Below, piece after piece: positions 11,878 through 63,010 of a stretch of DNA of 64,000 bases. The notes under the pieces were generated by a model that saw only the letters and a list, made by a program, of their open reading frames with translations, was not told where the DNA came from and made no database searches. A program made the translations under genes and the position numbers. Where the stretch lies: the NCBI RefSeq assembly GCF_035084215.1, contig NW_027139264.1, forward strand, positions 124,001 to 188,000. The letters run 5' to 3'. This stretch comes from Heptranchias perlo (lineage: Eukaryota). Position 1 is the first letter of the stretch. The number at the start of each line of letters is the position of its first letter.

Positions 11878-13304
11878 TAAAACGTCCCATGGCGTTTCAC
11901 AGGAGCGATTATCAAACAAAATTTGACACCGAGCCACATGAAATATTAGGACAGGTGACCAAAAGCTTGGTCAAAGAGGTAGGTTTTAAGGAGCATCTTA
12001 AAGGAGGAGAGAGAGGTGGAGAGGCGGAGAGGTCTTGGAAGGAATTCCAGAGCTTAGGGCCGAGGTAGCTGAAGGCATGGCTGCCAATGGTGGAGCGATT
12101 AAAATCGGGGATGCACAAGAGGCAAGAATTTGGAGAGCGGAGAGTTTTTGGATGGCTGTAGGGCTGGAGGAGGTTACAGAGAGAGGGAGGGGTGAGGCCA
12201 TGGAAGGATTTGAAAACAAAGATGAGAATTTTAAAATCGAGACTTTGCCAGACCGGGAACCAATGTAGATCAACGAGCACAGTGGAGTTGGGTGAACGGG
12301 ATTTGGTGTGAGTTAGGATACGGGCAGCAGAGTTTTGGATGAGCTCAAGTTTGTAGAGGGTGGAAGATGGGAGGCTGGCCAGGAGAGCATTGGAATGGTC
12401 AATTCCAGAGTTAATAAACATAGATGAGGGTTTCAGCAGCAGATGGGCTGAGGTAGGGGCGGGGACGGGCGGTGTTACGAAGGTGGAATTAGGTGGCCTT
12501 GATGATGAAGCAGATATGGGGTCAGAAGTTCCTCTCAGGGTCAAATAGGACGCCAAGGTTGTGAAGGTCTGGTTCAGCCTCAGACAATGGCCAGGGAGAG
12601 GGATGGAGTCGGGGGTCTAGGGAACGGAGTTTGTAGAGTCATAGAGTTATACAGCACGGATAGAGGCCCTTCGGCCCATCGTGTCCGCGCCGGCCATCAA
12701 GCCCAGTCTCATCTAATCCCATATTCCAGCATTTGGTCCGTAGCCTTGTATGCTATGGCATTTCAAGAGCTCATCCAAATGCTTCTTGAATGTTGTGAGG
12801 GTTCCTGCCTCCACAACCCTCTCAGGCAGTGAGTTCCAGACTCCAACCACCCTCTGGGTGAAAAAGTTCTTTCTCAAATCCCCTCTAAACCTCCCGCCTT
12901 TTACCTTGAATCTATGCCCCCTTGTTATAGAACCCTCAACGAAGGGAAAAAGCTCCTTAGTATCCATCCTATCTGTGCCCCTCATAATTTTGTACACCTC
13001 AATCATGTCCCCCCTCAGCCTCCTCTGCTCCAAGGAAAACAAACCCAATCTTCCCAGTCTCTCTTCATAGCTGAAGCGCTCCAGCCCTGGTAACATCCTG
13101 GTGAATCTCCTCTGCACCCTCTCCAAAGCGATCACATCCTTCCTGTAGTGCGGCGACCAGAACTGCACACAGTACTCCAGCTGTGGCCTAACCAGTGTTT
13201 TATACAGCTCCATCATAACCTCCTTGCTCTTATATTCTATGCCTCGGCTAATAAATTGTAAACAATTTTACAACACCAAGTTATAGTCCAGCAATTTTAT
13301 TTTA

Positions 13305-13347
13305 AATTCACAAGCTTTCGGAGATTTCCTCCTTCCTCAGGCAAATG
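13305..13347 (-). ncRNA. Minimal hammerhead ribozyme (left Penelope pLTR)
   Basis: Reverse complement of 16108-16150. Confidence 0.82.
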
Positions 13348-13589
13348 TTTCAAGAGCTCCTTGAAGCCTACGCATTTATACATATAGAACAATACATGGT
13401 GTTTACAGACTGCCCCTGCAACTGCCCGTTGCCAAGGCAATCACCGTGTTCAGACAGAGAGGTGTCACCTGCAGAACCCCCGAATACACATTCAACAAAA
13501 AAACAAACAGGGAAAAAAAACAGAGAAAAAAAACAGAGAGAGGCAGAAACATCCGGAAGGCAGAGAGAGCCAGCAAATGACCCATTATA

Positions 13590-14790
13590 TTAAAAACAGA
13601 TAACATTTGTTCGCTGGTGGGGTAACGTGTAGCGTGACATGAACCCAAGATCCCGGTTGAGGCCGTCCTCATGGGTGCGGAACTTGGCTATCAATTTCTG
13701 CTCGACGATTTTGCGTTGTCGTGTGTCTCGAAGGCCGCCTTGGAGTATGCTTACCCGAAGGTCGGTGGATGAATGTCCATGACTGCTGAAGTGTTCCCCG
13801 ACTGGGAGGGAACCCTCCTGTTTGGCGATTGTTGCGCGGTGTCCGTTCATCCGTTGTCGCAGCGTCTGCATGGTCTCGCCAATGTACCATGCTCTGGGGC
13901 ATCCTTTCCTGCAACGTATGAGGTAGACAACGTTGGCCGAGTCACAGGAGTATGAACCATGCACCTGGTGGGTGGTGTCCTCTCGTGTGATGGTGGTATC
14001 TGTGTCGATGATCTGGCATGTCTTGCAGAGGTTACCGTGGCAGGGTTGTGTGGTGTCGTGGACGCTGTTCTCTTGAAAGCTAGGTAGTTTGCTGCGAACG
14101 ATGGTCTGTTTGAGGTTGGGTGGCTGTTTAAAGGCGAGTAGTGGAGGTGTGGGGATGGCCATAGCGAGATGTTTGTCCTCATTGATGACATGTTGAAGGC
14201 TGCGGAGAACATGGCGTAGTTTCTCCGCTCCGGGGAAGTACTGGACGACAAAGGGTACTCTGTTGGTTGCGTCCCGTGTTAGTCTCCTGAGGAGGTCTAT
14301 GCGATTTTTTGCTGTGGCCCGTCGGAACTGTCGATCGATGAGTCGAGCGTCATATCCCGTTCTTACTAGGGCGTCTTTCAGCGTCTGTAGGTGTCCATCG
14401 CGTTCCTCCTCGTCTGAGCAGACCCTGTGTATTCGCAGGGCCTGTCCATAGGGGATGGCCTCTTTGACGTGGTTAGGGTGGAAGCTGGAAAAGTGGAGCA
14501 TCGTGAGGTTGTCCGTGGGCTTGCGGTAGAGTGAGGTGCTGAGGTGCCCGTCTTTGATGGAGATTCGTGTGTCCAAGAAAGAAACTGATTCTGAGGAGTA
14601 GTCCATGGTGAGCTTGATGGTGGGATGGAACTTGTTGATGTTATCGTGTAGTCTCTTTAGTGATTCCTTGCCGTGGGTCCATAGAAAGAAAATGTCGTCG
14701 ATGTATCTGGTGTATAGTGTTGGTTGGAGGTCTTGTGCAGTGAAGAAGTCCTGCTCGAACTTGTGCATGAAAATGTTGGCGTATTGGGGT
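13590..14790 (-). pseudogene. Penelope RT C-terminal half (YIDD) + GIY-YIG endonuclease, 5'-truncated
   Basis: YTRYIDDIF, FLD, YRKPT, VVYLIRC...WYIGET motifs. Confidence 0.92.
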
Positions 14791-15865
14791 ATCACTAAAG
14801 AGACTACACGATAACATCAACAAGTTCCATCCCACCATCAAGCTCACCATGGACTACTCCTCAGAATCAGTTTCTTTCTTGGACACACGAATCTCCATCA
14901 AAGACGGGCACCTCAGCACCTCACTCTACTGCAAGCCCACGGACAACCTCACGATGCTCCACTTTTCCAGCTTCCACCCTAACCACGTCAAAGAGGCCAT
15001 CCCCTATGGACAGGCCCTGCGAATACACAGGGTCTGCTCAGACGAGGAGGAACGCGATGGACACCTACAGACGCTGAAAGACGCCCTAGTAAGAACGGGA
15101 TATGACGCTCGACTCATCGATCGACAGTTCCGACGGGCCACAGCAAAAAATCGCATAGACCTCCTCAGGAGACTAACACGGGACGCAACCAACAGAGTAC
15201 CCTTTGTCGTCCAGTACTTCCCCGGAGCGGAGAAACTACGCCATGTTCTCCGCAGCCTTCAACATGTCATCAATGAGGACAAACACCTCGCTATGGCCAT
15301 CCCCACACCTCCACTACTCGCCTTTAAACAGCCACCCAACCTCAAACAGACCATCGTTCGCAGCAAACTACCTAGCTTTCAAGAGAACAGCGTCCACGAC
15401 GCCACACAACCCTGCCACGGTAACCTCTGCAAGACATGCCAGATCAACGACACAGATACTACCATCACACGAGAGGACACCACCCACCAGGTGCATGGTT
15501 CATACTCCTGTGACTCGGCCAACGTTGTCTACCTCATACGTTGCAGGAAAGGATGCCCCAGAGCATGGTACATTGGCGAGACCATGCAGACGCTGCGACA
15601 ACGGATGAACGGACACCGCGCAACAATCGCCAAACAGGAGGGTTCCCTCCCAGTCGGGGAACACTTCAGCAGTCATGGACATTCATCCACCGACCTTCGG
15701 GTAAGCGTACTCCAAGGCGGCCTTCGAGACACACGACAACGCAAAATCGTCGAGCAGAAATTGATAGCCAAGTTCCGCACCCATGAGGACGGCCTCAACC
15801 GGGATCTTGGGTTCATGTCACGCTACACGTTACCCCACCAGCGAACAAATGTTATCTGTTTTTAA
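14791..15865 (+). pseudogene. Penelope RT thumb + GIY-YIG endonuclease, 5'-truncated after YIDD
   Basis: Mirror copy of the left arm with a few substitutions (YRK/YCK, IID/IND, DTT/DAT, SIL/SVL). Confidence 0.92.
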
Positions 15866-16107
15866 TATAATGGGTCATTTGCTGGCTCTCTCTGCCTTCC
15901 GGATGTTTCTGCCTCTCTCTGTTTTTTTTCTCTGTTTTTTTTCCCTGTTTGTTTTTTTGTTGAATGTGTATTCGGGGGTTCTGCAGGTGACACCTCTCTG
16001 TCTGAACACGGTGATTGCCTTGGCAACGGGCAGTTGCAGGGGCAGTCTGTAAACACCATGTATTGTTCTATATGTATAAATGCGTAGGCTTCAAGGAGCT
16101 CTTGAAA

Positions 16108-16150
16108 CATTTGCCTGAGGAAGGAGGAAATCTCCGAAAGCTTGTGAATT
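16108..16150 (+). ncRNA. Minimal hammerhead ribozyme (right Penelope pLTR)
   Basis: atttgc-CTGAGGA-a-ggag gaaat ctcc-GAAA-gctt-gtgaat; palindromic AAGCTT stem III typical of dimer-acting PLE hammerheads. Confidence 0.82.
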
Positions 16151-18623
16151 TAAAATAAAATTGCTGGACTATAACTTGGTGTTGTAAAATTGTTTACAAT
16201 TGTCAACCCCAGTCCATCACCGGCATCTCCACATCATCGGCTAATAAAGGCAAGTATCCCATATGCCTTCTTTACCACCTTATCTACCTGTTCCGCCGCC
16301 TTCAGGGATCTGTGAACTTGCACACCAAGATCCCTCTGACCCTCTGTCTTGCCTAGGGTCCTCCCATTCATTGTGTATTCCCTTGCCTTGTTAGTCCCTC
16401 CAAAGTGCATCACCTCGCACTTTTCCGGGTTAAATTCCATTTGCCACTGTTCCGCCCATCTGACCAACCCATCTATATCGTCCTGCAGACTGAGGCTATC
16501 CTCCTCGCTATTTACCACCCTACCAATTTTTGTATCATCAGCGAACTTACTGATCATACCTTTTACATTCATATCCAAGTCGTTAATGTAGTCCACAAAC
16601 AGCAAGGGACCCAGCACCGATCCCTGTGGTACCCCACTGGCCACAGGCTTCCAGTCACAAAAACAACCTTCGACCATCACCCTCTGCCTTCTGCCACTAA
16701 GCCAGTTTTGTATCCAAAGTGCCAAGGCACCCTGGACTCCATGGGCTCGTACCTTCTTGACCAGTCTCCTGTGCGGGACTTTATCGAAGGCCTTACTGAA
16801 ATCCATGTATACCACATCCACTGCGTTACCCTCATCCACACGCCTCGTCACCCCCTCAAAAAATTCAATCAAATTAGTCAGACATGATCTTCCCTTGACA
16901 AAGCCATGTTGACTATCCCTGATTAATCCTTGCTTCTCCAAGTGGAGACTAATTTTGTCCTTCAGAATTTTTTCCAATAATTTTCCTACCACTGATGTTA
17001 GGCTCACTGGCCTGTAGTTCCCCGGTTTTTCCCTACTCCCCTTCTTGAATAATGGTACTACATTAGCGGTTCTCCAGTCCTCTGGCACATCCCCTGTGGC
17101 CAGAGAGGTTCTGAATATATGTGTTAGAGCCCCCGCAATCTCCTCCTTTGCCTCACACAGTAGCCTGGGATACATTTCGTCCGGGCCTGGGGATTTATCC
17201 ATTTTTAGGCCTGCTAAAACCGCCAATACCTCCTCCCGCTCGATGTTAATATGTTCGAGTATATCACAGTCCCCCTGTCGTATTTCTCTGTCTACGTCAT
17301 CCTTCTCCAAAGTGAAAACAGATGCAAAAAATTCATTTAGAACCCCTCCGACATCTTCCGGCTCCACACACAGATTGCCATTTTTGTCCCTAATGGGCCC
17401 TATTTTTTCCCTAGTTATCCTCTTACCCTTAATATACTTATAAAACATCTTAGGATTTTCCTTTATTTTGCTCGCCAGTGTTTTTTCATGGCCCCTCCTT
17501 GATCTCCTAATTTCCTTTTTAAGTATCCCCCTGCACTTTTTGTACTCCTCTAGGGCTTCCTCCGTCCTTAGCCTTTTGTATCTGCCAAAAGCCCTCCTTT
17601 TTTTCCTAATCCATTCTCGTATATCCCCTGACATCCAAGGTTCCCTGGAGTTCTTGGAACCACCCTTGACCTTTACGGGAACATGTTGCCATTGTATGGT
17701 CTCAATCTCCCTTCTGAAAGACTCCCATTGCTCCGATGCGGATTTTCCTACAAGCAGCTGATCCCAGTCCATTTTGGCCAGATCCTGCCTTATCCTATTA
17801 AAATCGGCCTTCCCCCAATTTAGAACCTTTATTTCCGGCCCCTCCCTGTCCTTTTCCATGACCACCTTAAATCTCACTGAATTATGGTCACTGTCACCAA
17901 AGTGCTCACCTACTAGCACTTCTTCCACTTGGCCGGACTCATCCCCTAGAATTAGGTCCAGTACCGCCCCCTCTCTTGTAGGACTTTCGACATGCTGGCT
18001 CAAAAAGCTCTCCTGGATGCACGTTAAGAATTTTGTATCCTCTAAGCCTTTTACACTCTGAGTATCCCAGTTAATATTGGGGAAGTTGAAATCCCCCACT
18101 ATTATTACCCTATTATTTGCACAATTTTCTGAGATTTGCCTACATATCTGTTCCTCTATCTCCCCCTGACTGTTTGGGGGTCTATAGTACACTCCCATCA
18201 AAGTGCTTGCCCCCTTTTTGTTTTTAAGCTCCACCCATATGGCCTCATTTGAGGAACCTGCTAATATATCATCCCTCCTTATGGCAGTAATTGATTCTTT
18301 AATTAATATTGCGACCCCCCCTCCTCTTATACCTCCCCCTCTGTCTCGCCTGAAGATTCTGTACCCCGGAATATTGAGCTGCCAGTCTTGCCCCTCCCTC
18401 AACCATGTCTCTGTGACAGCAACAATGTCATACTCCCATGTGTTTATCAACACCTTCAGTTCATCCACCTTATTTGCAAGACTCCTTGCATTAAAATAGA
18501 TGCCATCCAGCCTTGCTCTTACATATTTGCCCTGTCTTCCAAGCTGACTTGTTTTTTTCTCAATATTTGGCTGCACATCACCCCCTATTGTAGCTCCACT
18601 CTGTATCCCATCCCCCTGCCAAG

Positions 18624-19574
18624 TTAGTTTAAACCCCCCCCAACAGTGCTAGCAAACCTCCCCGCAAGGATATTTGTCCCGCTCTGGTTCAGATGCAACC
18701 CGTCCGACTTGTACAAGTCCCACCTTCCCCAGAAGCAGGCCCAGTGATCCAGGAAACTGAAACCTTCCCTCCTGCACCAACTCTTTTGCCACGCATTCAT
18801 CTGTTCTATCCTCCTATTTCTATACTCACCAGCCCGTGGCATTGGGAGTAATCCAGAGATTACAACCTTTGAGGTCCTGCTCTTTAATCTGCTACCTAGC
18901 TCCCTAAATTCTTGATGCAGGACCTCATCTCCCTTCCTACCTATGTCGTTGGTCCCAATGTGGACCACGACCTCTGCCTGCTCACCCTCCCCCTTGAGAA
19001 TGCCCTGAAGCCGCTCAGTGACATCCATGACCCTGGCACCAGGGAGGCAACAAACCATCCTGGAGTCACGTTTACGGCCACAGAAACGCCTGTCTGTTCC
19101 CCTTACGATAGAATCCCCTACCACTATAGCTCTTCCACTCTTTTTCCTCCCAGCCTGTGCAGCAGAGCTACCCCTGGTGCCAGGAAGTTGGCTGCTGCTG
19201 CCTTCCCCTGATAAGTCATCCCCCTCAACAATATCCAAAGCGGTATATTTGTTTGAGAGGGGGACGGCCACAGAGGACCCCTGCACTGCCTGCCTGCTCC
19301 TCTTACTCTGCCTGGAGGTCACCCACTTACTTCCTGCCTGTACAACCTTTACCTGCGGTGTGACCATCTCACTAAACGTGCTGTCCACGACGTTTTCAGC
19401 ATCGCGAATGCTCCATAATGAATCCATCCGCAGCTCCAGCGCCGCAATGCGGTTTGTCAGTAGCTGCAGCTGGATACATTTCCCGCACACATGGTCGTCA
19501 GGGACACCGGAAGGGTCCCTGATTTCCCACATAGAGCAGGAAGAGCACAACACGAGGCTGGGCTGTCCTGACAT
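18624..19574 (-). CDS. CR1 ORF1p: N-terminal Cys zinc finger / leucine zipper plus SGNH esterase domain (316 aa, intact)
   Basis: CSSC...CGKC, then GDS, HIGTND, DGLH motifs; ATG at 19574, TAA at 18624-18626. Confidence 0.92.
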   Translation of the reverse strand: MSGQPSLVLCSSCSMWEIRDPSGVPDDHVCGKCIQLQLLTNRIAALELRMDSLWSIRDAENVVDSTFSEMVTPQVKVVQAGSKWVTSRQSKRSRQAVQGSSVAVPLSNKYTALDIVEGDDLSGEGSSSQLPGTRGSSAAQAGRKKSGRAIVVGDSIVRGTDRRFCGRKRDSRMVCCLPGARVMDVTERLQGILKGEGEQAEVVVHIGTNDIGRKGDEVLHQEFRELGSRLKSRTSKVVISGLLPMPRAGEYRNRRIEQMNAWQKSWCRREGFSFLDHWACFWGRWDLYKSDGLHLNQSGTNILAGRFASTVGGGLN

Positions 19575-19842
19575 GACTTACCCTTTAACTAATTAATTCA
19601 AATTAAATGAATCCCACCAATTTCACTTCAATTAAAAGGTATACTCAAGGGCCCTTGCTGAACAGCAGTCCCCCACTCCACAACAGAGACCCTAGAATCC
19701 ACAAACTCTAACCTGAGACAAATTCAGCAGGAAAATACTCACCAACCAATCACTTACCTCTTCCTTGGTGACGTCCCACTTTGGATTACTTTTTGCTTCT
19801 TATTTATCTTAGGTCCAGGAGTTAAGTCCGTAGGTCTCTCCG

Positions 19843-20142
19843 AGGTCCGCTCCCGCCTGTAGCTCCGCTCCGAGTGCGGGTAGGCCCTCGAGCCTGGGCC
19901 TTTAGTAGTCTCCGAGTCCCGCGCTCTCTCCTAGGTCCGCTCCCGCCTGTAGCTCCGTCCGAGTGCGGGTAGGCCCTCGAGCCTGGGCCTTTAGTAGTCT
20001 CCGAGTCCCGCGCTCTCTCCTTGGTCCGCTCCCGCCTGTAGCTCCGCTCCGAGTGCGGGTAGGCCCTCGAGCCTGGGCCTTTAGTAGTCTCCTAGTCCCG
20101 CGCTCTCTCCTAGGTCCGCTCCCGCCTGTAGCTCCGCTCCGA
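19843..20142 (-). promoter_or_regulatory. CR1 5' UTR tandem monomers, 90 bp x about 3.3, CpG-rich (probable internal promoter)
   Basis: Unit starts at 19843, 19933, 20022, 20112; lies at the 5' end of the full-length CR1. Confidence 0.7.
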
Positions 20143-21519
20143 GATGGGGACCGAAGACAATGGCTTCAGTCTTCCCAATGTTTAATTGAAGGAAATTTCT
20201 GCTCATCCAATACTGGATGTTGGACAAGCAGTGTGACAAATCGGAAACAGTGGAGGGGTCGAGAGAGGTGGTGGTGAGGTAGAGCTGAGTGTCGTCAGTG
20301 TACTTGTGGAACCTCACGTTTATTGGATGATGTTGTCGAGGGGCAGCGTGTAGATAGGAGGGGACCAAGGATAGATCCTTGGGGAACTCCAGAGATAACG
20401 ATGCAAGAGCAGGAAGTGAACCCACTGCTGGTGATTCTCTGGCTATGACTGGATAGACAAGAATGGAACCAGGCGAGGGCAGTCCCACCCAGCTGGATGA
20501 CGGAGGAGAGGCATTGGAGGAGGACGGTGTGGTCAACCGTGTCAGAGGCTGCAGACAGGTGGAGAAGGATGAGGAGGGATAGTTTACCACGGTCACAGTC
20601 ACAGAGGATGTCATTTGTGACTTTGATAAGGGCCGTTTCAGTGCTGTGGCAGGGATGGAAACCTGATTGGAGGGATTCAAACATGGAGTTGCGGGAAAGA
20701 TGGGCACGGATTTGGGAGACGACAACATGTTCAAGGACTTTGGAGAGGAAAGGGAGGTTGGAGACGGGGCGGGAGTTTGCAAGGACAGAGGGGTCAAAGG
20801 TGGGTTTTTTGAGGAGGGGGTGATGACGGCAGATTTGAAGGGGAGGGGGACAGTACCTGAGAAAAGAGAACAAGATAAAAAGACATTGAGGATGGTTAAA
20901 ACCAAGATCAGGAAGAAAATTAGTCGTAAACAAGTGGGTTATAAAAGTTGGAAGAGAGTTGACATTTCTGTCTCGGACAAGAGGAGCAGCAGACCAGGAT
21001 GGTCAGGGTAGAAGAGGCAACAGACCTTTCAGATGATGTGACCCAGGTTCTCTCGGAGGAAAGTGAGAAGGCGGCTGGATATAATGTGTTAAGTTGAGTC
21101 ATAATGTTTACATTTAGAAATAAAAGAAGTTCGAGTCTTTGTCCTCCTCGCTTCCTGAGTCACATTGAGAATAAAAATAGAAGCTGAGACAAGTTGTACA
21201 ACTGGTTGTGTGAATCAGACTGTGCAGAGAGTCTGTCAAGGCAGGTTTGGTCAATTAATGTGGGAAAAAATAGTCAACAAATTTAACAATTGGCATTCCA
21301 GGTGGGAGAAAAGGTACAGAGGGTTCTTGGGTCATGTAAGAATAACACGGTATGATCAAATGTAGAAACAATACATCAATACAGAAAAGGAATTAATTCA
21401 AATATATCTGCTTCCTGAGTCAATCATAATTACAAACACTGAGACAAGCTGACAGGTAAATCTGCAACCTGGGATATCGAAACACAAAAGTCGAGATGGA
21501 AACATAGCAAACTAATCTT

Positions 21520-25564: not shown

Positions 25565-26702
25565 CTACTCCTGCGTCTGGTGACGTTTCAGGAGACGAGG
25601 TGAAGTCCTTCTCACACGCCCAGCATTTGGAGAGCTCCTCCCCTCAGAGGGCGCGCCGATCCCGCGAGAGGTCGGAGGGGTAACCGAGTGACCGGAGGCG
25701 GGTGGGGGAGGGGTCGAACCGGACCTCGCCGCACGGCGCCGGAACAGCTGCGACCGCCGGCTGAAGGCCCGCCGAGGCCACTCTGAGTGGATGCGCTCGT
25801 GGACCAGGAGGGCCGTCGAGCGGAGGAAGGCCTTCCCGCACATCGAGCACTTGTAGGCCTTGTCCCCGCTGTGCAGGCGCTGGTGGTTCAGGAAGCTGTA
25901 GGCGTGGGCGAAGGCCTGGTCGCACAGCGTGCACTTGTAGGGCCGCTCGCCGGTGTGGACGCGCCGGTGGACGGTGAGGCTGTACGGCCGGGAGAAGCTC
26001 TTCCCGCACACCGAGCACAGGTGCTGCTTCGGTGGGCAGGGGGAGGAAGAGGAGGAAGGTGAAGGGTCCCCGTTGGGACCAGGGGTCTTCGCCTGGGCCG
26101 GAGATCTGTCGGAGCTTTCCCCGGAGTGGCAGCACCTGTGCGTGGAGAAGGGTGACAGGTGGCTGTACATCTTGGCGCAAATGGGGCACTTGTAGATCTT
26201 CATGCCGGTGTGGACCCGCTGGTGCATCAGTAGCGAGGAGGAGCGGACGAAGCTCATGGGGCAGGCCAAGCAGCGGTAGGGCTTCTCCCTCATGTGGATG
26301 CGCTGGTGGACCAGCTGGTCGGAGGAGCGGGCAAAGGCCTTGTGGCACACCGGGCAGGCGAAGGGCTTCTCGCCAGTGTGGAGACGCTGGTGCTGGCGCA
26401 TGGCGTAGAGCCAGGCGAAGGCCTTGTGGCACACGGGGCAGGTGAAGGGCTTGTCACCGGAGTGTACCCGCTGGTGCTGGCGCAGGCCGGAGGGCTGGGC
26501 AAAGGCCTTGCCGCAGGTCGGGCACTGGAACTGCTTCTGCCCCAGGTGGATGTAGCGGTGGATCTTGAGGTTGGAGGGGCGGCTGAACATCTTCCCGCAG
26601 TCGGGACACTGCACCCTCTTGTCCCCCCGGGGGGCGCGCTCGCCCCCTGGCAGGTCGCAGGGCGGGGAAACAGCGGTTTGCGGATCCATTCTCCCTCCTG
26701 CC
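25565..26702 (-). CDS. C2H2 zinc-finger protein, main coding exon (9 fingers in clusters of 6 and 3)
   Basis: CxxC-x12-HxxxH repeats with HTGEKPF/HSGDKPF linkers; GC-rich codon usage; acceptor tcttgttcctcgtcgcaag at 26703; internal ATG at 26689; TAG at 25565-25567. Confidence 0.92.
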
Positions 26703-29254: not shown

Positions 29255-32200
29255 CTCTCACTCTCACATACACACTCACTCCCCCCTCTCCCTCCCTCCC
29301 TCCCACTCTCACACACACACTCACTCCCCCCTCTCCCTCCCTCCCTCCCACTCTCACACACACACTCACTCCCCCCTCTCCCTCCCTCCCTCCCACTCTC
29401 ACACACACACTCACTCCCCCCTCTCCCTCCCTCCCTCCCACTCTCACACACACACTCACTCCCCCCTCTCCCTCCCTCCCTCCCACTCTCACATACACAC
29501 TCACTCCCCCCTCTCCCTCCCTCCCTCCCACTCTCACATACACACTCACTCCCCCCTCTCCCTCCCTCCCTCCCACTCTCACATACACACTCACTCCCCC
29601 CTCTCCCTCCCTCCCTCCCACTCTCACATACACACTCACTCCCCCCTCTCCCTCCCTCCCTCCCTCCCACTCTCACATACACACTCACTCCCCCCTCTCC
29701 CTCCCTCCCTCCCACTCTCACATACACACTCACTCCCCCCTCTCCCTCCCTCCCTCCCTCCCTCCCACTCTCACATACACACTCACTCCCCCCTCTCCCT
29801 CCCTCCCTCCCACTCTCTCATACACACTCACTCCCCCCTCTCCCTCCCTCCCTCCCACTCTCACATACACACTCACTCCCCCCTCTCCCTCCCTCCCTCC
29901 CACTCTCACACACACTCACTCCCCCCTCTCCCTCCCTCCCTCCCACTCTCACACACACTCACTCCCCCCTCTCCCTTCCTCCCTCCCACTCTCACACACA
30001 CACTCACTCCCCCCTCTCCCTCCCTCCCTCCCACTCTCACACACACACTCACTCCCCCCTCTCCCTCCCTCCCTCCCACTCTCACATACACACTCACTCC
30101 CCCCTCTCCCTCCCTCCCTCCCACTCTCACATACACACTCACTCCCCCCTCTCCCTCCCTCCCTCCCACTCTCACATACACACTCACTCCCCCCTCTCCC
30201 TCCCTCCCTCCCACTCTCACATACACACTCACTCCCCCCTCTCCCTCCCTCCCTCCCACTCTCACATACACACTCACTCCCCCCTCTCCCTCCCTCCCTC
30301 CCACTCTCACACACACACTCACTCCCCCCTCTCCCTCCCTCCCTCCCACTCTCACACACACACTCACTCCCCCCTCTCCCTCGCTCCCTCCCACTCTCAC
30401 ACACTCACTCCCCCCTCTCCCTCCCTCCCTCCCACTCTCACACACAAACTCACTCCCCCCTCTCCCTCCCTCCCTCCCACTCTCTCACACACACTCACTC
30501 CCCCCTCTCCCTCCCTCCCTCCCTCCCACTCTCACATACACACTCACTCCCCCCTCTCCCTCCCTCCCTCCCACTCTCACATACACACTCACTCCCCCCT
30601 CTCCCTCCCTCCCTCCCTCCCACTCTCACATACACACTCACTCCCCCCTCTCCCTCCCTCCCTCCCACTCTCACACACACTCACTCCCCCCTCTCCCTCC
30701 CTCCCTCCCACTCTCTCACACACACTCACTCCCCCCTCTCCCTCCCTCCCTCCCTCCCACTCTCACATACACACTCACTCCCCCCTCTCCCTCCCTCCCT
30801 CCCACTCTCACACACACACTCACTCCCCCCTCTCCCTCCCTCCCTCCCACTCTCACACACACACTCACTCCCCCCTCTCCCTCCCTCCCTCCCACTCTCA
30901 CACACACACTCACTCCCCCCTCTCCCTCCCTCCCTCTCACTCTCTCATACACACTCACTCCCCCCTCTCCCTCCCTCCCTCCCACTCTCACATACACACT
31001 CACTCCCCCCTCTCCCTCCCTCCCTCCCACTCTCACATACACACTCACTCCCCCCTCTCCCTCCCTCCCTCCCACTCTCTCATACACACTCACTCCCCCC
31101 TCTCCCTCCCTCCCTCCCACTCTCTCATACACACTCACTCCCCCCTCTCCCTCCCTCCCTCCCACTCTCTCATACACACTCACTCCCCCTCTCCCTCCCT
31201 CCCTCCCACTCTCTCATACACACTCACTCCCCCCTCTCCCTCCCTCCCTCCCACTCTCACATACACACTCACTCCCCCCTCTCCCTCCCTCCCTCCCACT
31301 CTCACACACACTCACTCCCCCCTCTCCCTCCCTCCCTCCCACTCTCACACACACTCACTCCCCCCTCTCCCTCCCTCCCTCCCACTCTCACATACACACT
31401 CACTCCCCCCTCTCCCTCCCTCCCTCCCACTCTCACATACACACTCACTCCCCCCTCTCCCTCCCTCCCTCCCACTCTCACACACACACTCACTCCCCCC
31501 TCTCCCTCCCTCCCTCCCACTCTCATACACACTCACTCCCCCCTCTCCCTCCCTCCCTCCCACTCTCACATACACACTCACTCCCCCCTCTCCCTCCCTC
31601 CCTCCCACTCTCACATACACACTCACTCCCCCCTCTCCCTCCCTCCCTCTCACTCTCACACACACTCACTCCCCCCTCTCCCTCCCTCCCTCCCACTCTC
31701 ACATACACACTCACTCCCCCCTCTCCCTCCCTCCCTCCCACTCTCACATACACACTCACTCCCCCCTCTCCCTCCCTCCCTCCCACTCTCACACACACAC
31801 TCACTCCCCCCTCTCCCTCCCTCCCTCCCACTCTCACACACACTCACTCCCCCCTCTCCCTCCCTCCCTCCCACTCTCTCATACACACTCACTCCCCCCT
31901 CTCCCTCCCTCCCTCCCACTCTCACATACACACTCACTCCCCCCTCTCCCTCCCTCCCTCCCACTCTCACATAAACACTCACTCCCCCCTCTCCCTCCCT
32001 CCCTCCTACTCTCACACACACACTCACTCCCCCCTCTCCCTCCCACTCTCACACTCTCACATACACACTCACTCCCCCCTCTCCCTCCCTCCCTCCCACT
32101 CTCTCATACACACTCACTCCCCCCTCTCCCTCCCTCCCTCCCACTCTCTCATACACACTCACTCCCCCCTCTCCCTCCCTCCCTCCCACTCTCACATACA

Positions 32201-35200
32201 CACTCACTCCCCCCTCTCCCTCCCTCCCTCCCACTCTCACATACACACTCACTCCCCCCTCTCCCTCCCTCCCTCCCACTCTCAAATACACACTCACTCC
32301 CCCCTCTCCCTCCCTCCCTCCCACTCTCACACACACACTCACTCCCCCCTCTCCCTCCCTCCCTCCCACTCTCACATACACACTCACTCCCCCCTCTCCC
32401 TCCCTCCCTCCCACTCTCACATACACACTCACTCCCCCCTCTCCCTCCCTCCCTCCCACTCTCACATACACACTCACTCCCTCCTCTCCCTCCCTCCCTC
32501 CCACTCTCTCATACACACTCACTCCCCCCTCTCCCTCCCTCCCTCCCACTCTCACATACACACTCACTCCCCCCTCTCCCTCCCTCCCTCCCACTCTCAC
32601 ACACACACTCACTCCCCCCTCTCCCTCCCTCCCTCCCACTCTCTCATACACACTCACTCCCCCCTCTCCCTCCCTCCCTCCCACTCTCACACACACACTC
32701 ACTCCCCCCTCTCCCTCCCTCCCTCCCACTCTCACACACACACTCACTCCCCCCTCTCCCTCCCTCCCTCCCACTCTCACACACACACTCACTCCCCCCT
32801 CTCCCTCCCTCCCTCCCACTCTCTCACACACTCACTCCCTCCTCTCCCTCCCTCCCTCCCACTCTCTCATACACACTCACTCCCCCCTCTCCCTCCCTCC
32901 CTCCCACTCTCACATAAACACTCACTCCCCCCTCTCCCTCCCTCCCTCCCACTCTCACATACACACTCACTCCCCCCTCTCCCTCCCTCCCTCCCACTCT
33001 CACATACACACTCACTCCCCCCTCTCCCTCCCTCCCTCCCACTCTCTCATACACACTCACTCCCCCCTCTCCCTCCCTCCCTCCCACTCTCACATACACA
33101 CTCACTCCCCCCTCTCCCTCCCTCCCACTCTCACATACACACTCAGTCCCCCCTCTCCCTCCCTCCCTCCCACTCTCACATACACACTCACTCCCCCCTC
33201 TCCCTCCCTCCCTCCCACTCTCACATACACACTCACTCCCCCCTCTCCCTCCCTCCCTCCCACTCTCACACACACACTCACTCCCCCCTCTCCCTCCCTC
33301 CCTCCCACTCTCACACACACACTCACTCCCCCCTCTCCCTCCCTCCCTCCCACTCTCTCACACACACTCACTCCCCCCTCTCCCTCCCTCCCTCCCACCC
33401 TCACACACACACTCACTCCCCCCTCTCCCTCCCTCCCTCCCACTCTCACACACACACTCACTCCCCCCTCTCCCTCCCTCCCTCCCACCCTCACACACAC
33501 ACTCACTCCCCCCTCTCCCTCCCTTCCTCCCACTCTCACATACACACTCACTCCCCCCTCTCCCTCCCTCCCTCCCACTCTCACACACACTCACTCCCCC
33601 CTCTCCCTCCCTCCCTCCCACTCTCACACACACAATCACTCCCCCCTCTCCCTCCCTCCCTCCCACTCTCACACACACACTCACTCCCCCCTCTCCCTCC
33701 CTCCCTCCCACTCTCACATACACACTCACTCCCCCCTCTCCCTCCCTCCCTCCCACTCTCACATACACACTCACTCCCCCCTCTCCCTCCCTCCCTCCCA
33801 CTCTCACATACACACTCACTCCCCCCTCTCCCTCCCTCCCTCCCACTCTCACAAACACACTCACTCCCCCCACTCCCTCCCTCCCTCCCACTCTCACAAA
33901 CACACTCACTCCCCCCTCTCCCTCCCTCCCTCCCACTCTCACATACACACTCACTCCCCCCTCTCCCTCCCTCCCTCCCACTCTCACACACACACTCACT
34001 CCCCCCTCTCCCTCCCTCCCTCCCACTCTCACACACACTCACTCCCCCCTCTCCCTCCCTCCCTCCCACTCTCACATACACACTCACTCCCCCCTCTCCC
34101 TCCCTCCCTCCCACTCTCACATACACACTCACTCCCCCCTCTCCCTCCCTCCCTCCCACCCTCACACACACACTCACTCCCCCCTCTCCCTCCCTTCCTC
34201 CCACTCTCACATACACACTCACTCCCCCCTCTCCCTCCCTCCCTCCCACTCTCACACACACTCACTCCCCCCTCTCCCTCCCTCCCTCCCACTCTCACAC
34301 ACACAATCACTCCCGCCTCTCCCTCCCTCCCTCCCACTCTCACACACACACTCACTCCCCCCTCTCCCTCCCTCCCTCCCACTCTCACACACACACTCAC
34401 TCCCCCCTCTCCCTCCCTCCCTCCCACTCTCACATACACACTCACTCCCCCCTCTCCCTCCCTCCCTCCCACTCTCACAGACACACTCACTCCCCCCTCT
34501 CCCTCCCTCCCTCCCACCCTCACACACACACTCACTCCCCCCTCTCCCTCCCTCCCTCCCACTCTCTCATACACACTCACTCCCCCCTCTCCCTCCCTCC
34601 CTCCCACTCTCACACACACACTCACTCCCCCCTCTCCCTCCCTCCCTCCCACTCTCACATACACACTCACTCCCCCCTCTCCCTCCCTCCCTCCCACTCT
34701 CACACACACACTCACTCCCCCCTCTCCCTCCCTCCCTCTCACTCTCACATAAACACTCACTCCCCCCTCTCCCTCCCTCCCTCCCACTCTCACACACACA
34801 CTCACTCCACCCTCTCCCTCCCTCCCTCCCTCCCACTCTCACATACACACTCACTCCCCCCTCTCCCTCCCTCCCTCCCACTCTCACACACACACTCACT
34901 CCCCCCTCTCCCTCCCTCCCTCCCACTCTCACACACACACTCACTCCCCCCTCTCCCTCCCTCCCTCCCACTCTCACATACACACTCACTCCCCCCTCTC
35001 CCTCCCTCCCTCCCACTCTCACATACACACTCACTCCCCCCTCTCCCTCCCTCCCTCCCACTCTCACATAAACACTCACTCCCCCCTCTCCCTCCCTCCC
35101 TCCCACTCTCACATACACACTCACTCCCCCCTCTCCCTCCCTCCCTCCCACTCTCACATACACACTCACTCCCCCCTCTCCCTCCCTCCCTCCCACTCTC

Positions 35201-38200
35201 TCATACACACTCACTCCCCCCTCTCCCTCCCTCCCTCCCACTCTCACATACACACTCACTCCCCCCTCTCCCTCCCTCCCTCCCACTCTCTCATACACAC
35301 TCACTCCCCCCTCTCCCTCCCTCCCTCCCACTCTCACATACACACTCACTCCCCCCTCTCCCTCCCTCCCTCCCTCCCACTCTCACATACACACTCACTC
35401 CCCCCTCTCCCTCCCTCCCTCCCACTCTCACATACACACTCACTCCCCCCTCTCCCTCCCTCCCTCCCACTCTCACACACACACTCACTCCCCCCTCTCC
35501 CTCCCTCCCTCCCACTCTCACACACACACTCACTCCCCCCTCTCCCTCCCTCCCTCCCACTCTCACAGACACACTCACTCCCCCCTCTCCCTCCCTCCCT
35601 CCCACTCTCACATACACACTCACTCCCCCCTCTCCCTCCCTCCCTCCCACTCTCACATACACACTCACTCCCCCCTCTCCCTCCCTCCCTCCCACTCTCA
35701 CACACACACTCACTCCCCCCTCTCCCTCCCTCCCTCCCTCCCACTCTCACATACACACTCACTCCCCCCTCTCCCTCCCTCCCTCCCACTCTCTCATACA
35801 CACTCACTCCCCCCTCTCCCTCCCTCCCTCCCACTCTCACACACACACTCACTCCCCCCTCTCCCTCCCTCCCTCCCACTCTCACATACACACTCACTCC
35901 CCCCTCTCCCTCCCTCCCTCCCACTCTCACACACACACTCACTCCCCCCTCTCCCTCCCTCCCTCCCACTCTCACATACACACTCACTCCCCCCTCTCCC
36001 TCCCTCCCTCCCACTCTCACATACACACTCACTCCCCCCTCTCCCTCCCTCCCTCCCACTCTCACACACACACTCACTCCCCCCTCTCCCTCCCTCCCTC
36101 CCACTCTCACATACACACTCACTCCCCCTCTCCCTCCCTCCCTCCCACTCTCACATACACACTCACTCCCCCCTCTCCCTCCCTCCCTCCCACTCTCACA
36201 TACACACTCACTCCCCCCTCTCCCTCCCTCCCTCTCACTCTCACATAAACACTCACTCCCCCCTCTCCCTCCCTCCCTCCCACTCTCACAGACACACTCA
36301 CTCCCCCCTCTCCCTCCCTCCCTCCCAATCTCACACACACTCACTCCCCCCTCTCCCTCCCTCCCTCCCACTCTCACATACACACTCACTCCCCCCTCTC
36401 CCTCCCTCCCACCCACTCTCACATACACACTCACTCCCCCCTCTCCCTCCCTCCCTCCCACTCTCTCATACACACTCACTCCCCCCTCTCCCTCCCTCCC
36501 TCCCACTCTCACATACACACTCACTCCCCCCTCTCCCTCCCTCCCTCCCTCCCTCCCACTCTCACATACACACTCACTCCCCCCTCTCCCTCCCTCCCTC
36601 CCACTCTCACATACACACTCACTCCCCCCTCTCCCTCCCTCCCTCCCACTCTCTCATACACACTCACTCCCCCCTCTCCCTCCCTCCCTCCCACTCTCAC
36701 ATACACACTCACTCCCCCCTCTCCCTCCCTCCCTCCCACTCTCACATACACACTCACTCCCCCCTCTCCCTCCCTCCCTCCCACTCTCACACACACACTC
36801 ACTCCCCCCTCTCCCTCCCTCCCTCCCACTCTCACACACACACTCCCCCCTCTCCCTCCCTCCCTCGCACTCTCACATACACACTCACTCCCCCCTCTCC
36901 CTCCCTCCCTCCCACTCTCACATACACACACACTCCCCCCTCTCCCTCCCTCCCTCCCACTCTCATACACACACTCACTCCCCCCTCTCCCTCCCTCCCT
37001 CCCACTCTCTCATACACACTCACTCCCCCCTCTCCCTCGCTCCCTCCCACTCTCACATACACACTCACTCCCCCCTCTCCCTCCCTCCCTCCCACTCTCA
37101 CACACACACTCACTCCCCCCTCTCCCTCCCTCCCTCCCACTCTCTCATACACACTCACTCCCCCCTCTCCCTCCCTCCCTCCCACTCTCACACACACACT
37201 CACTCCCCCCTCTCCCTCCCTCCCTCCCACTCTCACATACACACTCACTCCCCCCTCTCCCTCCCTCCCTCCCACTCTCACATACACACTCACTCCCCCC
37301 TCTCCCTCCCTCCCTCCCACTCTCATACACACTCACTCCCCCCTCTCCCTCCCTCCCTCCCACTCTCACATACAGACTCACTCCCCCCTCTCCCTCCCTC
37401 TCTCCCACTCTCACATACACACTCACTCCCCCCTCTCCCTCCCTCCCTCCCACTCTCACATACACACTCACTCCCCCCTCTCCCTCCCTCCCTCCCACTC
37501 TCATACACACTCACTCCCCCCTCTCCCTCCCTCCCTCCCACTCTCAATTAAACACTCACTCCCCCCTCTCCCTCCCTCCCTCCCACTCTCATACACTCAC
37601 TCCCCCCTCTCCCTCCCTCCCTCTCACTCTCACATACACACTCACTCCCCCCTCTCCCTCCCTCCCTCTCACTCTCACATACACACTCACTCCCCCCTCT
37701 CCCTCCCTCCCTCCCACTCTCATACACTCACTCCCCCCTCTCCCTCCCTCCCTCTCACTCTCACATACACACTCACTCCCCCCTCTCCCTCCCTCCCTCC
37801 CACTCTCATACACACTCACTCCCCCCTCTCCCTCCCTCCCTCTCACTCTCACATACACACTCACTCCCCCCTCTCCCTCCCTCCCTCTCACTCTCACATA
37901 CACACTCACTCCCCCCTCTCCCTCCCTCCCTCCCACTCTCACATACACACTCACTCCCCCTCTCCCTCCCTCCCTCCCACTCTCACATACACACTCACTC
38001 CCCCCTCTCCCTCCCTCCCTCCCACTCTCACATACACACTCACTCCCCCCTCTCCCTCCCTCCCTCCCACTCTCACATACACACTCACTCCCCCCTCTCC
38101 CTCCCTCCCTCCCACTCTCCCTCCCACTCTCACACACACTCACTCCCCCCTCTCCCTCCCTCCCTCCCACTCTCACATACACACTCACTCCCCCCTCTCC

Positions 38201-40010
38201 CTCCCTCCCTCCCACTCTCACACACACACTCACTCCCCCCTCTCCCTCCCTCCCTCCCACTCTCACATACACACTCACTCCCCCCTCTCCCTCCCTCCCT
38301 CCCACTCTCTCATACACACTCACTCCCCCCTCTCCCTCCCTCCCTCCCTCCCTCCCACTCTCACACACACACTCACTCCCCCCTCTCCCTCCCTCCCTCC
38401 CACTCTCAATTAAACACTCACTCCCCCCTCTCCCTCCCTCCCTCCCACTCTCACACACACACTCACTCCCCCCTCTCCCTCCCTCCCTCCCACTCTCACA
38501 TACACACTCACTCCCCCCTCTCCCTCCCTCCCTCCCACTCTCACATACACACTCACTCCCCCCTCTCCCTCCCTCCCTCCCACTCTCATACACACTCACT
38601 CCCCCCTCTCCCTCCCTCCCTCCCACTCTCACATACACACTCACTCCCCCCTCTCCCTCCCTCCCTCCCACTCTCATACACACTCACTCCCCCCTCTCCC
38701 TCCCTCCCTCCCACTCTCACATACACACTCACTCCCCCCTCTCCCTCCCTCCCTCCCTCCCACTCTCACATAAACACTCACTCCCCCCTCTCCCTCCCTC
38801 CCTCCCACTCTCTCATACACACTCACTCCCCCCTCTCCCTCCCTCCCTCCCTCCCACTCTCACACACACACTCACTCCCCCCTCTCCCTCCCTCCCTCCC
38901 ACTCTCACACACACTCACTCCCCCCTCTCCCTCCCTCCCTCCCACTCTCACACACACACTCACTCCCCCCTCTCCCTCCCTCCCTCCCACTCTCACACAC
39001 ACACTCACTCCCCCCTCTCCCTCCCTCCCTCCCACTCTCACATACACACTCACTCCCCCCTCTCCCTCCCTCCCTCCCACTCTCATACACACTCACTCCC
39101 CCCTCTCCCTCCCTCCCTCCCACTCTCACATAAACACTCACTCCCCCCTCTCCCTCCCTCCCTCCCACTCTCACATAAACACTCACTCCCCCCTCTCCCT
39201 CCCTCCCTCCCACTCTCACATACACACTCACTCCCCCCTCTCCCTCCCTCCCTCCCACTCTCACATACACACTCACTCCCCCCTCTCACTCCCTCCCTCC
39301 CACTCTCACATACACACTCACTCCCCCCTCTCCCTCCCTCCCTCCCACTCTCACATACACACTCACTCCCCCCTCTCCCTCCCTCCCTCCCACTCTCACA
39401 TACACACTCACTCCCCCCTCTCCCTCCCTCCCTCCCACTCTCACACACACACTCACTCCCCCCTCTCCCTCCCTCCCTCCCACTCTCACACACACTCACT
39501 CCCCCCTCTCCCTCCCTCCCTCCCACTCTCACACACACACTCACTCCCCCCTCTCCCTCCCTCCCTCCCACTCTCACACACACACTCACTCCCCCCTCTC
39601 CCTCCCTCCCTCCCACTCTCACATACACACTCACTCCCCCCTCTCCCTCCCTCCCTCCCACTCTCACATACACACTCACTCCCCCCTCTCCCTCCCTCCC
39701 TCCCACTCTCACATACACACTCACTCCCCCCTCTCCCTCCCTCCCTCCCACTCTCACATACACACTCACTCCCCCCTCTCCCTCCCTCCCTCCCACTCTC
39801 ACACACACTCACTCCCCCCTCTCCCTCCCTCCCTCCCACTCTCACATACACACTCACTCCCCCCTCTCCCTCCCTCCCTCCCACTCTCTCATACACACTC
39901 ACTCCCCCCTCTCCCTCCCTCCCTCCCACTCTCACAGACACACTCACTCCCCCCTCTCCCTCCCTCCCTCCCACTCTCACACACACACTCACTCCCCCCT
40001 CTCTCTCCCT
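29255..40010. repeat. 45-bp C/T-rich minisatellite (ctcactcccccctctccctccctccctcccactctcacatacaca)n, about 240 units
   Basis: Direct periodicity with 2-bp and 4-bp slippage variants; almost no G on the plus strand. Confidence 0.98.
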
Positions 40011-40249
40011 CCCTCCCTCCCGCTCTCTCCCCCTCCCCCCGCTCACACACTCACCGTCAGTCTCTCACACACACAATCTCACACTCGCTCAATCTCACAC
40101 TCACATCCTCTGTCACGATCTCACACTGACTCACACACACAGTCGCACACTCACTCGCACACACTCACTCACTCTCTCACACTCACTCACTCACTCTCTC
40201 ACACTCAGTCAGTTTCAGAACCTCTCCCTCTGACCCAACATCTCTCCCT

Positions 40250-43200: not shown

Positions 43201-43324
43201 CTCTCTCTTTCTCCTTCTCTCTCTCTCCGTGACGGAGCCTCTGACCGTCTCCCCAGAGTGCACCGGGGCCGCGGGCGGACCGCTTTCCGAGCCGCGCGGC
43301 CTTGTGGGTAATGAACACCGCCAT
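43176..43324 (-). CDS. Candidate first coding exon of the zinc-finger gene (MAVFITHKAARLGKRS...EDR)
   Basis: Unique CpG-rich island between two arrays; gcaATGGCG start context; donor CAG|GTGAG at 43176 is phase 2, matching the phase-2 acceptor at 26702. Confidence 0.45.
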
Positions 43325-43327
43325 TGC

Positions 43328-46300: not shown

Positions 46301-48740
46301 AGACTGACCAAAACACCAGACAGACAGGGGGGAATCTCACCATCAGTCACCGCTCCCAGACTGACCAAAACACCAGACAGACAGGGGGGAATCTCACCAT
46401 CAATCACCGCTCCCAGACTGACCAAAACACCAGACAGACAGGGGGGAATCTCACCATCAATCACCGCTCCCAGACTGACTGAAACACCAGACAGACAGGG
46501 GGGAATCTCACCATCAGTCACCGCTCCCAGACTGACCAAAACACCAGACAGACAGGGGGGAATCTCACCATCAGTCACCGCTCCCAGACTGAACAAAACA
46601 CCAGACAGACAGAGGGGAATCTCACCATCAGTCACCGCTCCCAGACTGACCAAAACACCAGACAGACAGAGGGGAATCTCACCATCAGTCACCGCTCCCA
46701 GACTGACCAAAACACCAGACAGACAGAGGGGAATCTCACCATCAGTCACCGCTCCCAGACTGACCAAAACACCAGACAGACAGAGGGGAATCTCACCATC
46801 AGTGACCGCTCCCAGACTGACCAAAACACCAGACAGACAGAGGGGGAATCTCACCATCAGTGACCGCTCCCAGACTGACCAAAACACCAGACAGACAGAG
46901 GGGAATCTCACCATCAATCACCGCTCCCAGACTGACCAAAACACCAGACAGACAGAGGGGAATCCCACCATCAGTCACCGCTCCCAGACTGACCAAAACA
47001 CCAGACAGACAGAGGGGAATCTCACCATCAATCACCGCTCCCAGACTGACCAAAACACCAGACAGACAGAGGGGAATCCCACCATCAGTGACCGCTCCCA
47101 GACTGACCAAAACACCAGACAGACAGGGGGGAATCTCACCATCAGTCACCGCTCCCAGACTGACCAAAACACCAGACAGACAGGGGGGAATCCCACGGTC
47201 AGTGACCGCTCCCAGACTGACCAAAACACCAGACAGACAGAGGGGAATCTCACCATCAGTCACCGCTCCCAGACTGACCAAAACACCAGACAGACAGAGG
47301 GGAATCTCACCATCAATCACCGCTCCCAGACTGACCAAAACACCAGACAGACAGGGGCGAATCTCACCATCAGTCACCGCTCCCAGACTGACCAAAACAC
47401 CAGACAGACAGAGGGGAATCTCACCATCAATCACCGCTCCCAGACTGACCAAAACACCAGACAGACAGGGGGGAATCTCACCATCAGTCACTGCTCCCAG
47501 ACTGACCAAAACACCAGACAGACAGGGGGGAATCTCACCATCAGTCACCGCTCCCAGACTGACCAAAACACCAGACAGACAGAGGGGAATCTCACCATCA
47601 ATCACCGCTCCCAGACTGACCAAAACACCAGACAGACAGGGGGGAATCTCACCATCAGTCACCGCTCCCAGACTGACCAAAACACCAGACAGACAGAGGG
47701 GAATCTCACCATCAATCACCGCTCCCAGACTGACCAAAACACCAGACAGACAGGGGGGAATCTCACCATCAATCACCGCTCCCAGACTGACCAAAACACC
47801 AGACAGACAGAGGGGAATCCCACCATCAATCACCGCTCCCAGACTGACCAAAACACCAGACAGACAGAGGGGAATCTCACCATCAATCACCGCTCCCAGA
47901 CTGACCAAAACACCAGACAGACAGGGGGGAATCTCACCATCAGTCACCGCTCCCAGACTGACCAAAACACCAGACAGACAGGGGGGAATCTCACCATCAG
48001 TCAACGCTCCCAGACTGACCAAAACACCAGACAGACAGAGGGGAATCTCACCATCAATCACCGCTCCCAGACTGACCAAAACACCAGACAGACAGGGGGG
48101 AATCTCACCATCAGTCACCGCTCCCAGACTGACCAAAACACCAGACAGACAGAGGGGAATCTCACCATCAGTGACCGCTCCCAGACTGACAAAAACACCA
48201 GACAGACAGGGGGGAATCTCACCATCAGTCACCGCTCCCAGACTGACCAAAACACCAGACAGACAGAGGGGAATCTCACCATCAGTGACCGCTCCCAGAC
48301 TGACCAAAACACCAGACAGACAGAGGGGAATCTCACCATCAGTGACCGCTCCCAGACTGACCAAAACACCAGACAGACAGGGGGGAATCTCAACATCAAT
48401 CACCGCTCCCAGACTGACCAAAACACCAGACAGACAGGGGGGAATCTCACCATCAATCACCGCTCCCAGACTGACCAAAACACCAGACAGACAGGGGGGA
48501 ATCTCACCATCAGTCACTGCTCCCAGACTGACCAAAACACCAGACAGACAGAGGGGAATCTCACCATCAGTCACCGCTCCCAGACTGACCAAAACACCAG
48601 ACAGACAGGGGGGAATCTCACCATCAATCACCGCTCCCAGACTGACCAAAACACCAGACAGACAGAGGGGAATCCCACCATCAGTGACCGCTCCCAGACT
48701 GACCAAAACACCAGACAGACAGGGGGGAATCCCACCATTG
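43328..48740. repeat. 57-bp minisatellite (gctcccagactgaccaaaacaccagacagacaggggggaatctcaccatcagtcacc)n, about 95 units, with 2053-bp higher-order duplication
   Basis: 19-codon periodicity; rare variants recur at +2053. Confidence 0.98.
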
Positions 48741-62600: not shown

Positions 62601-63010
62601 CGCAAACTACGTCACTAACTGCTTTTCTACTTTGCGTTTCCTGGTCTGAATTTGTCCTATCTGGACCTGCCCTTTGGTTCCCATCCCCCACCATACTAGT
62701 TTAAACCCTCCCCAACACAACTCGCAAATGTCCCCACGAGGATACTGGTCCCGGTTCTGCTTGGGTGCAATCCTTTCATCTTGTACAGGTCCCGCCTTTC
62801 CCAGAATCGGTCTCAATGCCTCAGGAATTTAAACCCCTCCCTCCTACACCATCTCTCAAGCCACGCATTCATCTGGTCTATTCTCCTATTTCTGCTCTCG
62901 CTGGCATGTGGCACTGGGAGTAATCCTGAGATTACTTCCTTAGAGGTCCTGCTTTTTAATTTATTTCCTATCTCCCGATATTCTGCTTGCAGGACCTCAT
63001 CCGTTTTTTT
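59658..63010 (-). mobile_element. CR1 LINE, 5'-truncated within ORF1, ORF2 frameshifted
   Basis: Esterase ORF1 remnant 62700-63010; APE/RT pieces 62345-62605, 60693-62339, 59744-60505; 3' tail near 59658. Confidence 0.93.

Follow-up and report, generated by a model that had tools for sequence, protein, structure and literature searches.

A conserved slippery heptamer at the ORF1/ORF2 junction of CR1 retrotransposons and its probable use in programmed -1 frameshifting

Esterase-type CR1 LINEs are the dominant retrotransposons of most vertebrates. Canonical vertebrate CR1 elements combine an esterase ORF1 with an APE-RT ORF2, as set out in the part of PMC13343379 that treats them, and the element described here, which shares this layout, is one of them. 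In its passages on CR1, that survey contains no mention of frameshifting, overlap, or start codons and does not address ORF2 translation. ORF2 translation in LINEs is called an open and important question in a passage of PMC3894237. The worked cases, L1 and SART1, use reinitiation (passages in PMC3894237, PMC2881922, and PMC10275272); in SART1, this is coupled to the word UAAUG. Their RNAs are likewise bicistronic, with ORF2 beginning at the ORF1 stop, but UAAUG is found in only a subset of CR1 elements, and CR1 conserves a slippery heptamer instead of an AUG.

The Dictyostelium elements TRE5-A and TRE3-A are likewise APE-type non-LTR retrotransposons, and a -1 frameshift is said in part of PMC5911963 to be required for their ORF2. 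The principle is therefore not new for non-LTR elements. TRE5-A and TRE3-A differ from CR1 in clade and host, and the relevant passage of PMC5911963 gives neither a shift site nor a stimulator. In the papers and passages found by literature search, the frameshifting review PMC5009743 among them, CR1 frameshifting is nowhere described.

U_UUA_AAC is listed among the shiftiest heptamers on mammalian ribosomes in a section of PMC5009743. The same section describes infectious bronchitis virus (IBV) and other coronaviruses, which place U_UUA_AAC in the same phase, with a downstream polymerase ORF in the -1 frame. The CR1 site differs from these in having no predicted local structure, an immediate stop, and a G5 run at a fixed distance. 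Coronavirus U_UUA_AAC sites use a 3′ pseudoknot. In the arterivirus nsp2 -2/-1 frameshift, nsp1beta/PCBP acts on CCCANCUCC, a short linear motif at a fixed spacer rather than a structure (parts of PMC5009743 and PMC7618843), as the G5 run would be here. The arterivirus motif is C-rich whereas that of CR1 is G-rich, the shift sites differ, and no binding protein is known for the CR1 G5 run. By analogy, the arterivirus PCBP site may serve as a model for how the G5 run acts.

The CR1 element analysed here lies in a window of 64,000 nucleotides from Heptranchias perlo. Judging from sequence comparison, its ORF1/ORF2 junction is probably a programmed -1 frameshift site giving an esterase-APE-RT fusion. 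The junction signal itself is real, ancient, and conserved.

The element and its ORF1/ORF2 junction

ORF1 encodes an esterase (Pfam PF13472, E 1.7e-15) whose profile matches the solved ZfL2-1-type ORF1 esterase in PDB 4c1b (E 5.4e-43). ORF2 matches PF03372, PF14529, and PF00078, which cover APE and RT. Both canonical features, an SGNH esterase in ORF1 and APE plus RT in ORF2, are thus present, and from domain layout and homologues we take the element to be a CR1. Sister copies L158-L160 end, as judged by eye, in a 7-nt repeat without poly(A), which fits the canonical CR1 3′ end; a short tandem-repeat 3′ end marks CR1 elements (in part after section 15 of PMC13343379). Family C copies L167-L169 apparently carry two tail hairpin units in tandem at the 3′ end, and L166 carries one.

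An insertion at about 13270-16230 of the window splits ORF2. It contains two near-identical inverted ORFs (13590-14816, minus; 14771-15865, plus) that encode an RT end and a Y-I-G-E-T motif, and is presumably Penelope-like. Judging from its translation, the segment beyond the insertion likely belongs to the interrupted ORF2 (Table 1). The CR1 5′ region contains a 90-bp tandem repeat of 3.4 copies at 19835-20143, and a diverged RT fragment at about 20165-21002 adjoins the element.

The preliminary description of this DNA placed a slippery heptamer in phase directly before the ORF1 stop, and the coordinates bear it out: ORF1 ends GGT TTA AAC TAA at 18633-18624 (minus), with TTTAAAC at 18633-18627 in the X_XXY_YYZ phase. 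The -1 frame is, as also described there, stop-free into the APE motif YFNARS. It is open from 18648 to 16234, reads F-K-L-T-W-Q-G-D-G at the junction, and reaches YFNARS at 18498. Upstream of the heptamer, ORF1 and ORF2 overlap by five codons that contain no ATG; the 1997 chicken and turtle CR1 papers may already mention the ORF overlap. The first in-frame ATG of ORF2 (18198) is codon 145 counted from the heptamer, and the N of NARS is codon 47, which places this ATG 98 codons past the first APE motif. The first APE motifs contain catalytic residues, as in the L1 endonuclease, and would be lost if ORF2 started there. Past the stop, the nearest AUG lies in frame 0 and would pull scanning ribosomes away from ORF2.

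Table 1. Features of the CR1 element, its junction, and its families (window positions)
Feature	Position	Strand	Remarks
Slippery heptamer U_UUA_AAC	18627..18633	minus	in phase with ORF1
ORF1 stop TAA	18624..18626	minus	directly 3′ of the heptamer; relatives have TAA, TAG, or TGA
Linker, open in the -1 frame, ~42 codons	18499..18623	minus	length family-specific; -1 register always kept in intact copies
G5 run (+11 to +15 from the heptamer), a candidate stimulator of frameshifting	18612..18616	minus	conserved among representatives
First AUG after the stop	18609..18611	minus	frame 0; context GGGAUGG; opens 8 codons only
CR1 ORF1, 316 aa, ends G-L-N-stop	18624..19574	minus	two N-terminal CxxC pairs; C-terminal SGNH/GDSL esterase
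CR1 ORF2 frame (APE from 18498, RT)	16234..18648	minus	804 codons stop to stop; ended at 16234 by insertion; first in-frame ATG 18198
Probable C-terminal remainder of this ORF2, on the far side of the insertion	12713..13267	minus	reading taken up again at F-I-S-R, the point at which the 804-codon frame breaks off
C-rich ORF1 stretch	19252..19281	minus	best predicted partner of the post-stop G-rich stretch in family A, -33.8 kcal/mol; weak lead
Second, decayed CR1 junction, other family	62684..62705	minus	heptamer + TAG; G5 one base closer; APE off register
Family A (window's family)			stop to APE motif 128 nt
Family B			stop to APE motif 200 nt; old
Family C			stop to APE motif 143 nt
Family D			stop to APE motif 158 nt

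The pattern of heptamer, stop, N7, and G5, which was defined after loci had been seen, is matched three times in the window with at most one mismatch, where 0.04 matches are expected. Besides the junction described here, these are the second CR1 junction and a site outside any CR1 ORF. The second CR1 element spans about 60275-63010 (minus) and is 65% identical.

Conservation across copies and lineages

All 30 of the closest loci in this genome, the window included, share the junction (99-100% identical; the best 30 of 1517 candidates), which is therefore not a lesion of one copy. Families B, C, and D were found by genome searches with diverged ORF1 proteins, and their esterases are 51-54% (B) and 75-76% (C and D) identical to that of family A. 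In a tally of 155 loci of the same genome, 63 of which duplicate an already counted sequence, the heptamer followed by TA stands at the expected place in 142, differs in 5, and is unanchorable in 8. All four families retain the heptamer. Protein queries P0018 and P0052 gave no new family at first look over their matches, and their loci appear only in this tally.

The -1 register is kept in every row with an intact end and an APE motif in families A (22/22), C (17/17), and D (18/18). In the old family B, it is kept in 9 of 15 anchored rows; five are off register and one has no motif. These off-register copies and the second junction in the window are decayed copies. Families C and D (L071-L110) have ORF1 sequences that are 89-90% identical and unrelated linkers and APE starts, with the switch just 3′ of the G-run. 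The position of this switch suggests module swaps at the junction.

Conservation of the heptamer and the -1 register, proposed earlier as a check, extends across families to copies with about 25-40% ORF1 identity, at otherwise near-saturated silent sites. Among the 120 ORF1 homologues listed, 87 end in L-N. Restricted to homologues that have a short tail and contain a DGxH motif, the figure is 80 of 84; the remaining 36 of the 120 have no such motif or long tails. By source name, the L-N homologues come from sharks, rays, coelacanth, a bony fish, frogs, turtles, lizards, and a bird. The stop-to-APE distances of 104, 122, 128, 140, 143, 158, 185, and 200 nt represent eight linker lengths, all in the -1 register. 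Metagenome loci in which APE was found have it in the -1 frame at 104, 122, 140, or 143 nt in seven cases, and L133 is off register. In L149, the stop is lost and the linker shortened.

Three ORF1 proteins, P0003, P0088, and P0090, end in E-L-N, which is incompatible with U_UUA_AAC, as a purine is expected at the first position. A CR1 ORF1-like protein that is 63% identical, P0008, is filed under Pseudomonas aeruginosa and is likely host contamination of that assembly. Prokaryote genome contigs gave two weak esterases and no junction, and viral contigs gave no relatives by protein. A pattern search of viral contigs returned 62 matches, one with long frames on both sides that is not CR1-like and was taken as chance. 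A search for longer proteins gave four matches; these include an esterase-APE protein represented by a single gene model but do not form a fused family. In the ray gene models P0038 and P0121, the esterase runs directly into G-F-K-L and on to APE, which is the -1 reading of the junction; these fusions probably arose through single-copy indels.

The terminal Leu is encoded by TTA in 16/16 representatives and the terminal Asn by AAC in 15/16, with TTA making up 12.8% of Leu codons. Each of the 23 other conserved esterase columns uses at least two codons. Ten metagenome rows in this 16-representative comparison had been located by the motif, so loci located by protein match alone served as a control. 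Scanning metagenomes yielded 44 host-DNA loci, of which 25 end before the end of ORF1. The 19 evaluable loci, distant copies with 28-38% ORF1 identity that were placed by protein match, read TTTAAAC in 16 cases, TTTAAAT in one, and neither in two.

The first U of the heptamer is the silent third position of a variable residue, and it is T in 18/18 representatives. This residue takes 11 values, 84 of 87 being encodable by NNT, a result that is no longer significant once duplicates are strictly removed (p 0.16, n 12). Silent identity among six deep lineages is 95/266 (0.36) at four-fold sites, 31/91 (0.34) at Leu codons, and 83/158 (0.53) at NNY codons. All three silent sites are kept in five further lineages, with p near 1e-6 if independence is assumed. 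On these codon comparisons, the heptamer is conserved beyond protein constraint. Only -1 re-pairing predicts an invariant first U, and tandem slippage is the sole model that needs all seven bases.

The G5 run and candidate stimulators

G is present at +11, +12, +13, and +15 in 18/18 representatives and at +14 in 17/18, and the positions from +4 to +10 are variable. GGGG occurs in 71 of 1493 control windows. L119 and L149, which lie outside the set of 18 representatives, also carry the G-run. The families diverge completely after about +21, and the assembled contigs of four runs have loose ends at 18606, which is the family divergence point.

The preliminary description had proposed that downstream G-runs and a ttggc/gccaa pairing act as stimulator. 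The G-runs are there (G5 at 18616-18612); the pairing appears in 0/5 predicted folds (z -0.10 to +0.85). No local 3′ hairpin is better than shuffles in 19 folds (z -1.6 to +1.1). A classical stem-loop 5-9 nt downstream was not found either, and a pseudoknot is improbable there, as this stretch is purine-rich and has no stable first stem. A G-quadruplex was rejected as stimulator, as it gives an energy gain in only 4/19 cases. Pairing of the G-run with the 3′ tail of the element is among the top sites in 3/3 family B and 3/3 family C copies and in neither the two A nor the four D copies, and was set aside as not general. The C-rich tail strand in B and C resembles, by eye, an arm of the tail's own hairpin.

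Pairing of the G-run with ORF1 about 650 nt upstream is the best predicted site in A, D, L118, and L125 and near the best in L117. It is not the best in the other 12/18 rows (D2 counted as D), and matched against mismatched families give p 0.06 on 7 rows. This predicted long-range pairing is a lead only. Stimulators that start 12-15 nt behind the shift site act at the mRNA entrance, and linear stimulators work with trans-acting factors, according to sections of the review PMC5009743. The conserved 3′ element is a G5 run at a fixed distance and not a hairpin, and the G5 motif is the likely candidate for the stimulator.

Frameshifting and alternative explanations

In the proposed mechanism, a minority of ribosomes would slip back one base on U_UUA_AAC just ahead of the ORF1 stop. 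The slippage would be tandem, with tRNA-Leu and tRNA-Asn re-pairing from UUA/AAC to UUU/AAA, and the junction peptide would read G-L-N (or G-L-K), then L-T-W-Q-G. The product would be an esterase-APE-RT fusion of about 1,280 residues. More speculatively, the G5 run at +11 to +15 might reach the mRNA entry channel during decoding of the heptamer and slow the ribosome. It would most likely act as a site for a bound protein or by long-range pairing, because there is no local hairpin. ORF1p would then greatly outnumber the fused RT, at a set ratio, and the RT would be anchored in the ORF1p multimer in the way that Gag-Pol is anchored in Gag.

The AUG-less character of ORF2, claimed in the preliminary description, holds for the window copy and its family and fails in other lineages. 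There is no in-frame AUG ahead of the APE motif in 21/22 family A and 17/17 family C copies, and in families A, B, C, and D the representatives have their first post-stop AUG in frame 0. Of 20 representatives, six (D2, L116, L117, L125, L134, and L148) carry an in-frame AUG 2-5 nt past the first stop base, as does L119. Among the 13 representatives whose APE is in the -1 frame, an in-frame AUG precedes the motif in eight, at six distinct positions. ORF2 is, on these sequences, AUG-less in families A and C and in L113/L114, and not universally so, because some lineages have an in-frame AUG beside the stop. An AUG before the APE domain in the family consensus, named beforehand as evidence against frameshifting, thus occurs in some lineages and not in the window's family.

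The main rival to frameshifting is termination-reinitiation as in SART1 and L1, which we consider unlikely. Ribosomes would stop at the ORF1 end and resume either one base upstream or a few bases downstream, using an AUG where present and otherwise a non-AUG codon. The heptamer and G5 would then be a reinitiation signal, and ORF2p a separate protein with an N-terminal tail of 35-65 residues. This model explains the -1 register equally well. The SART1 stop-start word TAATG, which provides the in-frame AUG, occurs in 7/19 family D copies and in L134, and the AUG lies 5 nt after the first stop base in L116, L117, L119, L125, and L148. There is precedent in SART1, which uses UAAUG, and in both SART1 and L1, whose ORF2 depends on ORF1 translation (passages in PMC3894237 and PMC2881922). 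However, a conserved UAAUG or AUG beside the stop, as in SART1, is not found and is absent in the window's family, and folds compared with shuffles show no RNA structure downstream of the stop. Different codons occupy the stop-start position (ACT, AAG, AAT, ATG, GAT, GGT), near relatives have no AUG, and in the window's family an AUG in good context follows after 15 nt, outside the ORF2 frame. A TURBS-like UGGGA occurs at no shared upstream position. Reinitiation also leaves the invariant first U of the heptamer unpredicted, and the heptamer is retained even in lineages with an AUG.

A combination of both routes is rather improbable. Here, frameshifting would be ancestral, and lineages with an AUG beside the stop would add free ORF2p by reinitiation. 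Heptamer, G5, and in-frame AUG do co-occur in L116, L117, L119, L125, L134, L148, and family D2. However, the AUG is missing in the close relatives L126 and L127 and in 12/19 family D copies, and its context in D2 is poor (CTAATGT), so the AUG may be neutral.

As for splicing or transcript indels, contigs of four runs (two samples, guessed to be RNA) span the junction and show neither a listed indel nor a joint to the ORF1 start; such contigs drop rare forms, so they carry no weight as evidence here. Most improbable is that the motif is kept for another reason (the protein C-terminus L-N, a splice acceptor, RNA packaging, or polymerase slippage), with ORF2 translation beginning at a near-cognate linker codon: most linkers contain near-cognate codons, the G-run follows AG in families A, C, and D and in L113, and the last SGNH helix extends to the final profile positions in some bacterial homologues, but protein constraint is unable to fix TTA and AAC, AG is missing ahead of the G-run in L118, L134, L140, and L148, near-cognate positions are not common to the linkers, and the ZfL2-1 esterase alignment stops at profile position 312 of 316.

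Programmed -1 frameshifting also allows a broader reading, which is plausible and held tentatively. Esterase-type CR1 LINEs may have made their RT as a Gag-Pol-like fusion for over 400 million years, through a 22-nt cassette of U_UUA_AAC, stop, 7 nt, and GGGGG with a new structure-free stimulator. Its reader would possibly be a G-run-binding protein or, in a feedback loop, ORF1p itself, and the cassette would also mark ORF1/ORF2 module swaps between families. If CR1 does frameshift, a dominant vertebrate LINE clade uses a retroviral strategy, annotated CR1 ORF2 proteins lack the genuine N-terminal portion, and the esterase accompanies the RT. A frameshift junction may also account for engineered CR1 elements needing their native junction, and the cassette could be usable as a compact frameshift part.

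Elsewhere in the window, long satellite arrays occupy about 19 kb (29255-48738); their periods are 45, 50, and 57 bp, and their strand skew is extreme. Repeats of 84 bp and C2H2 type are located at 25826-26510.
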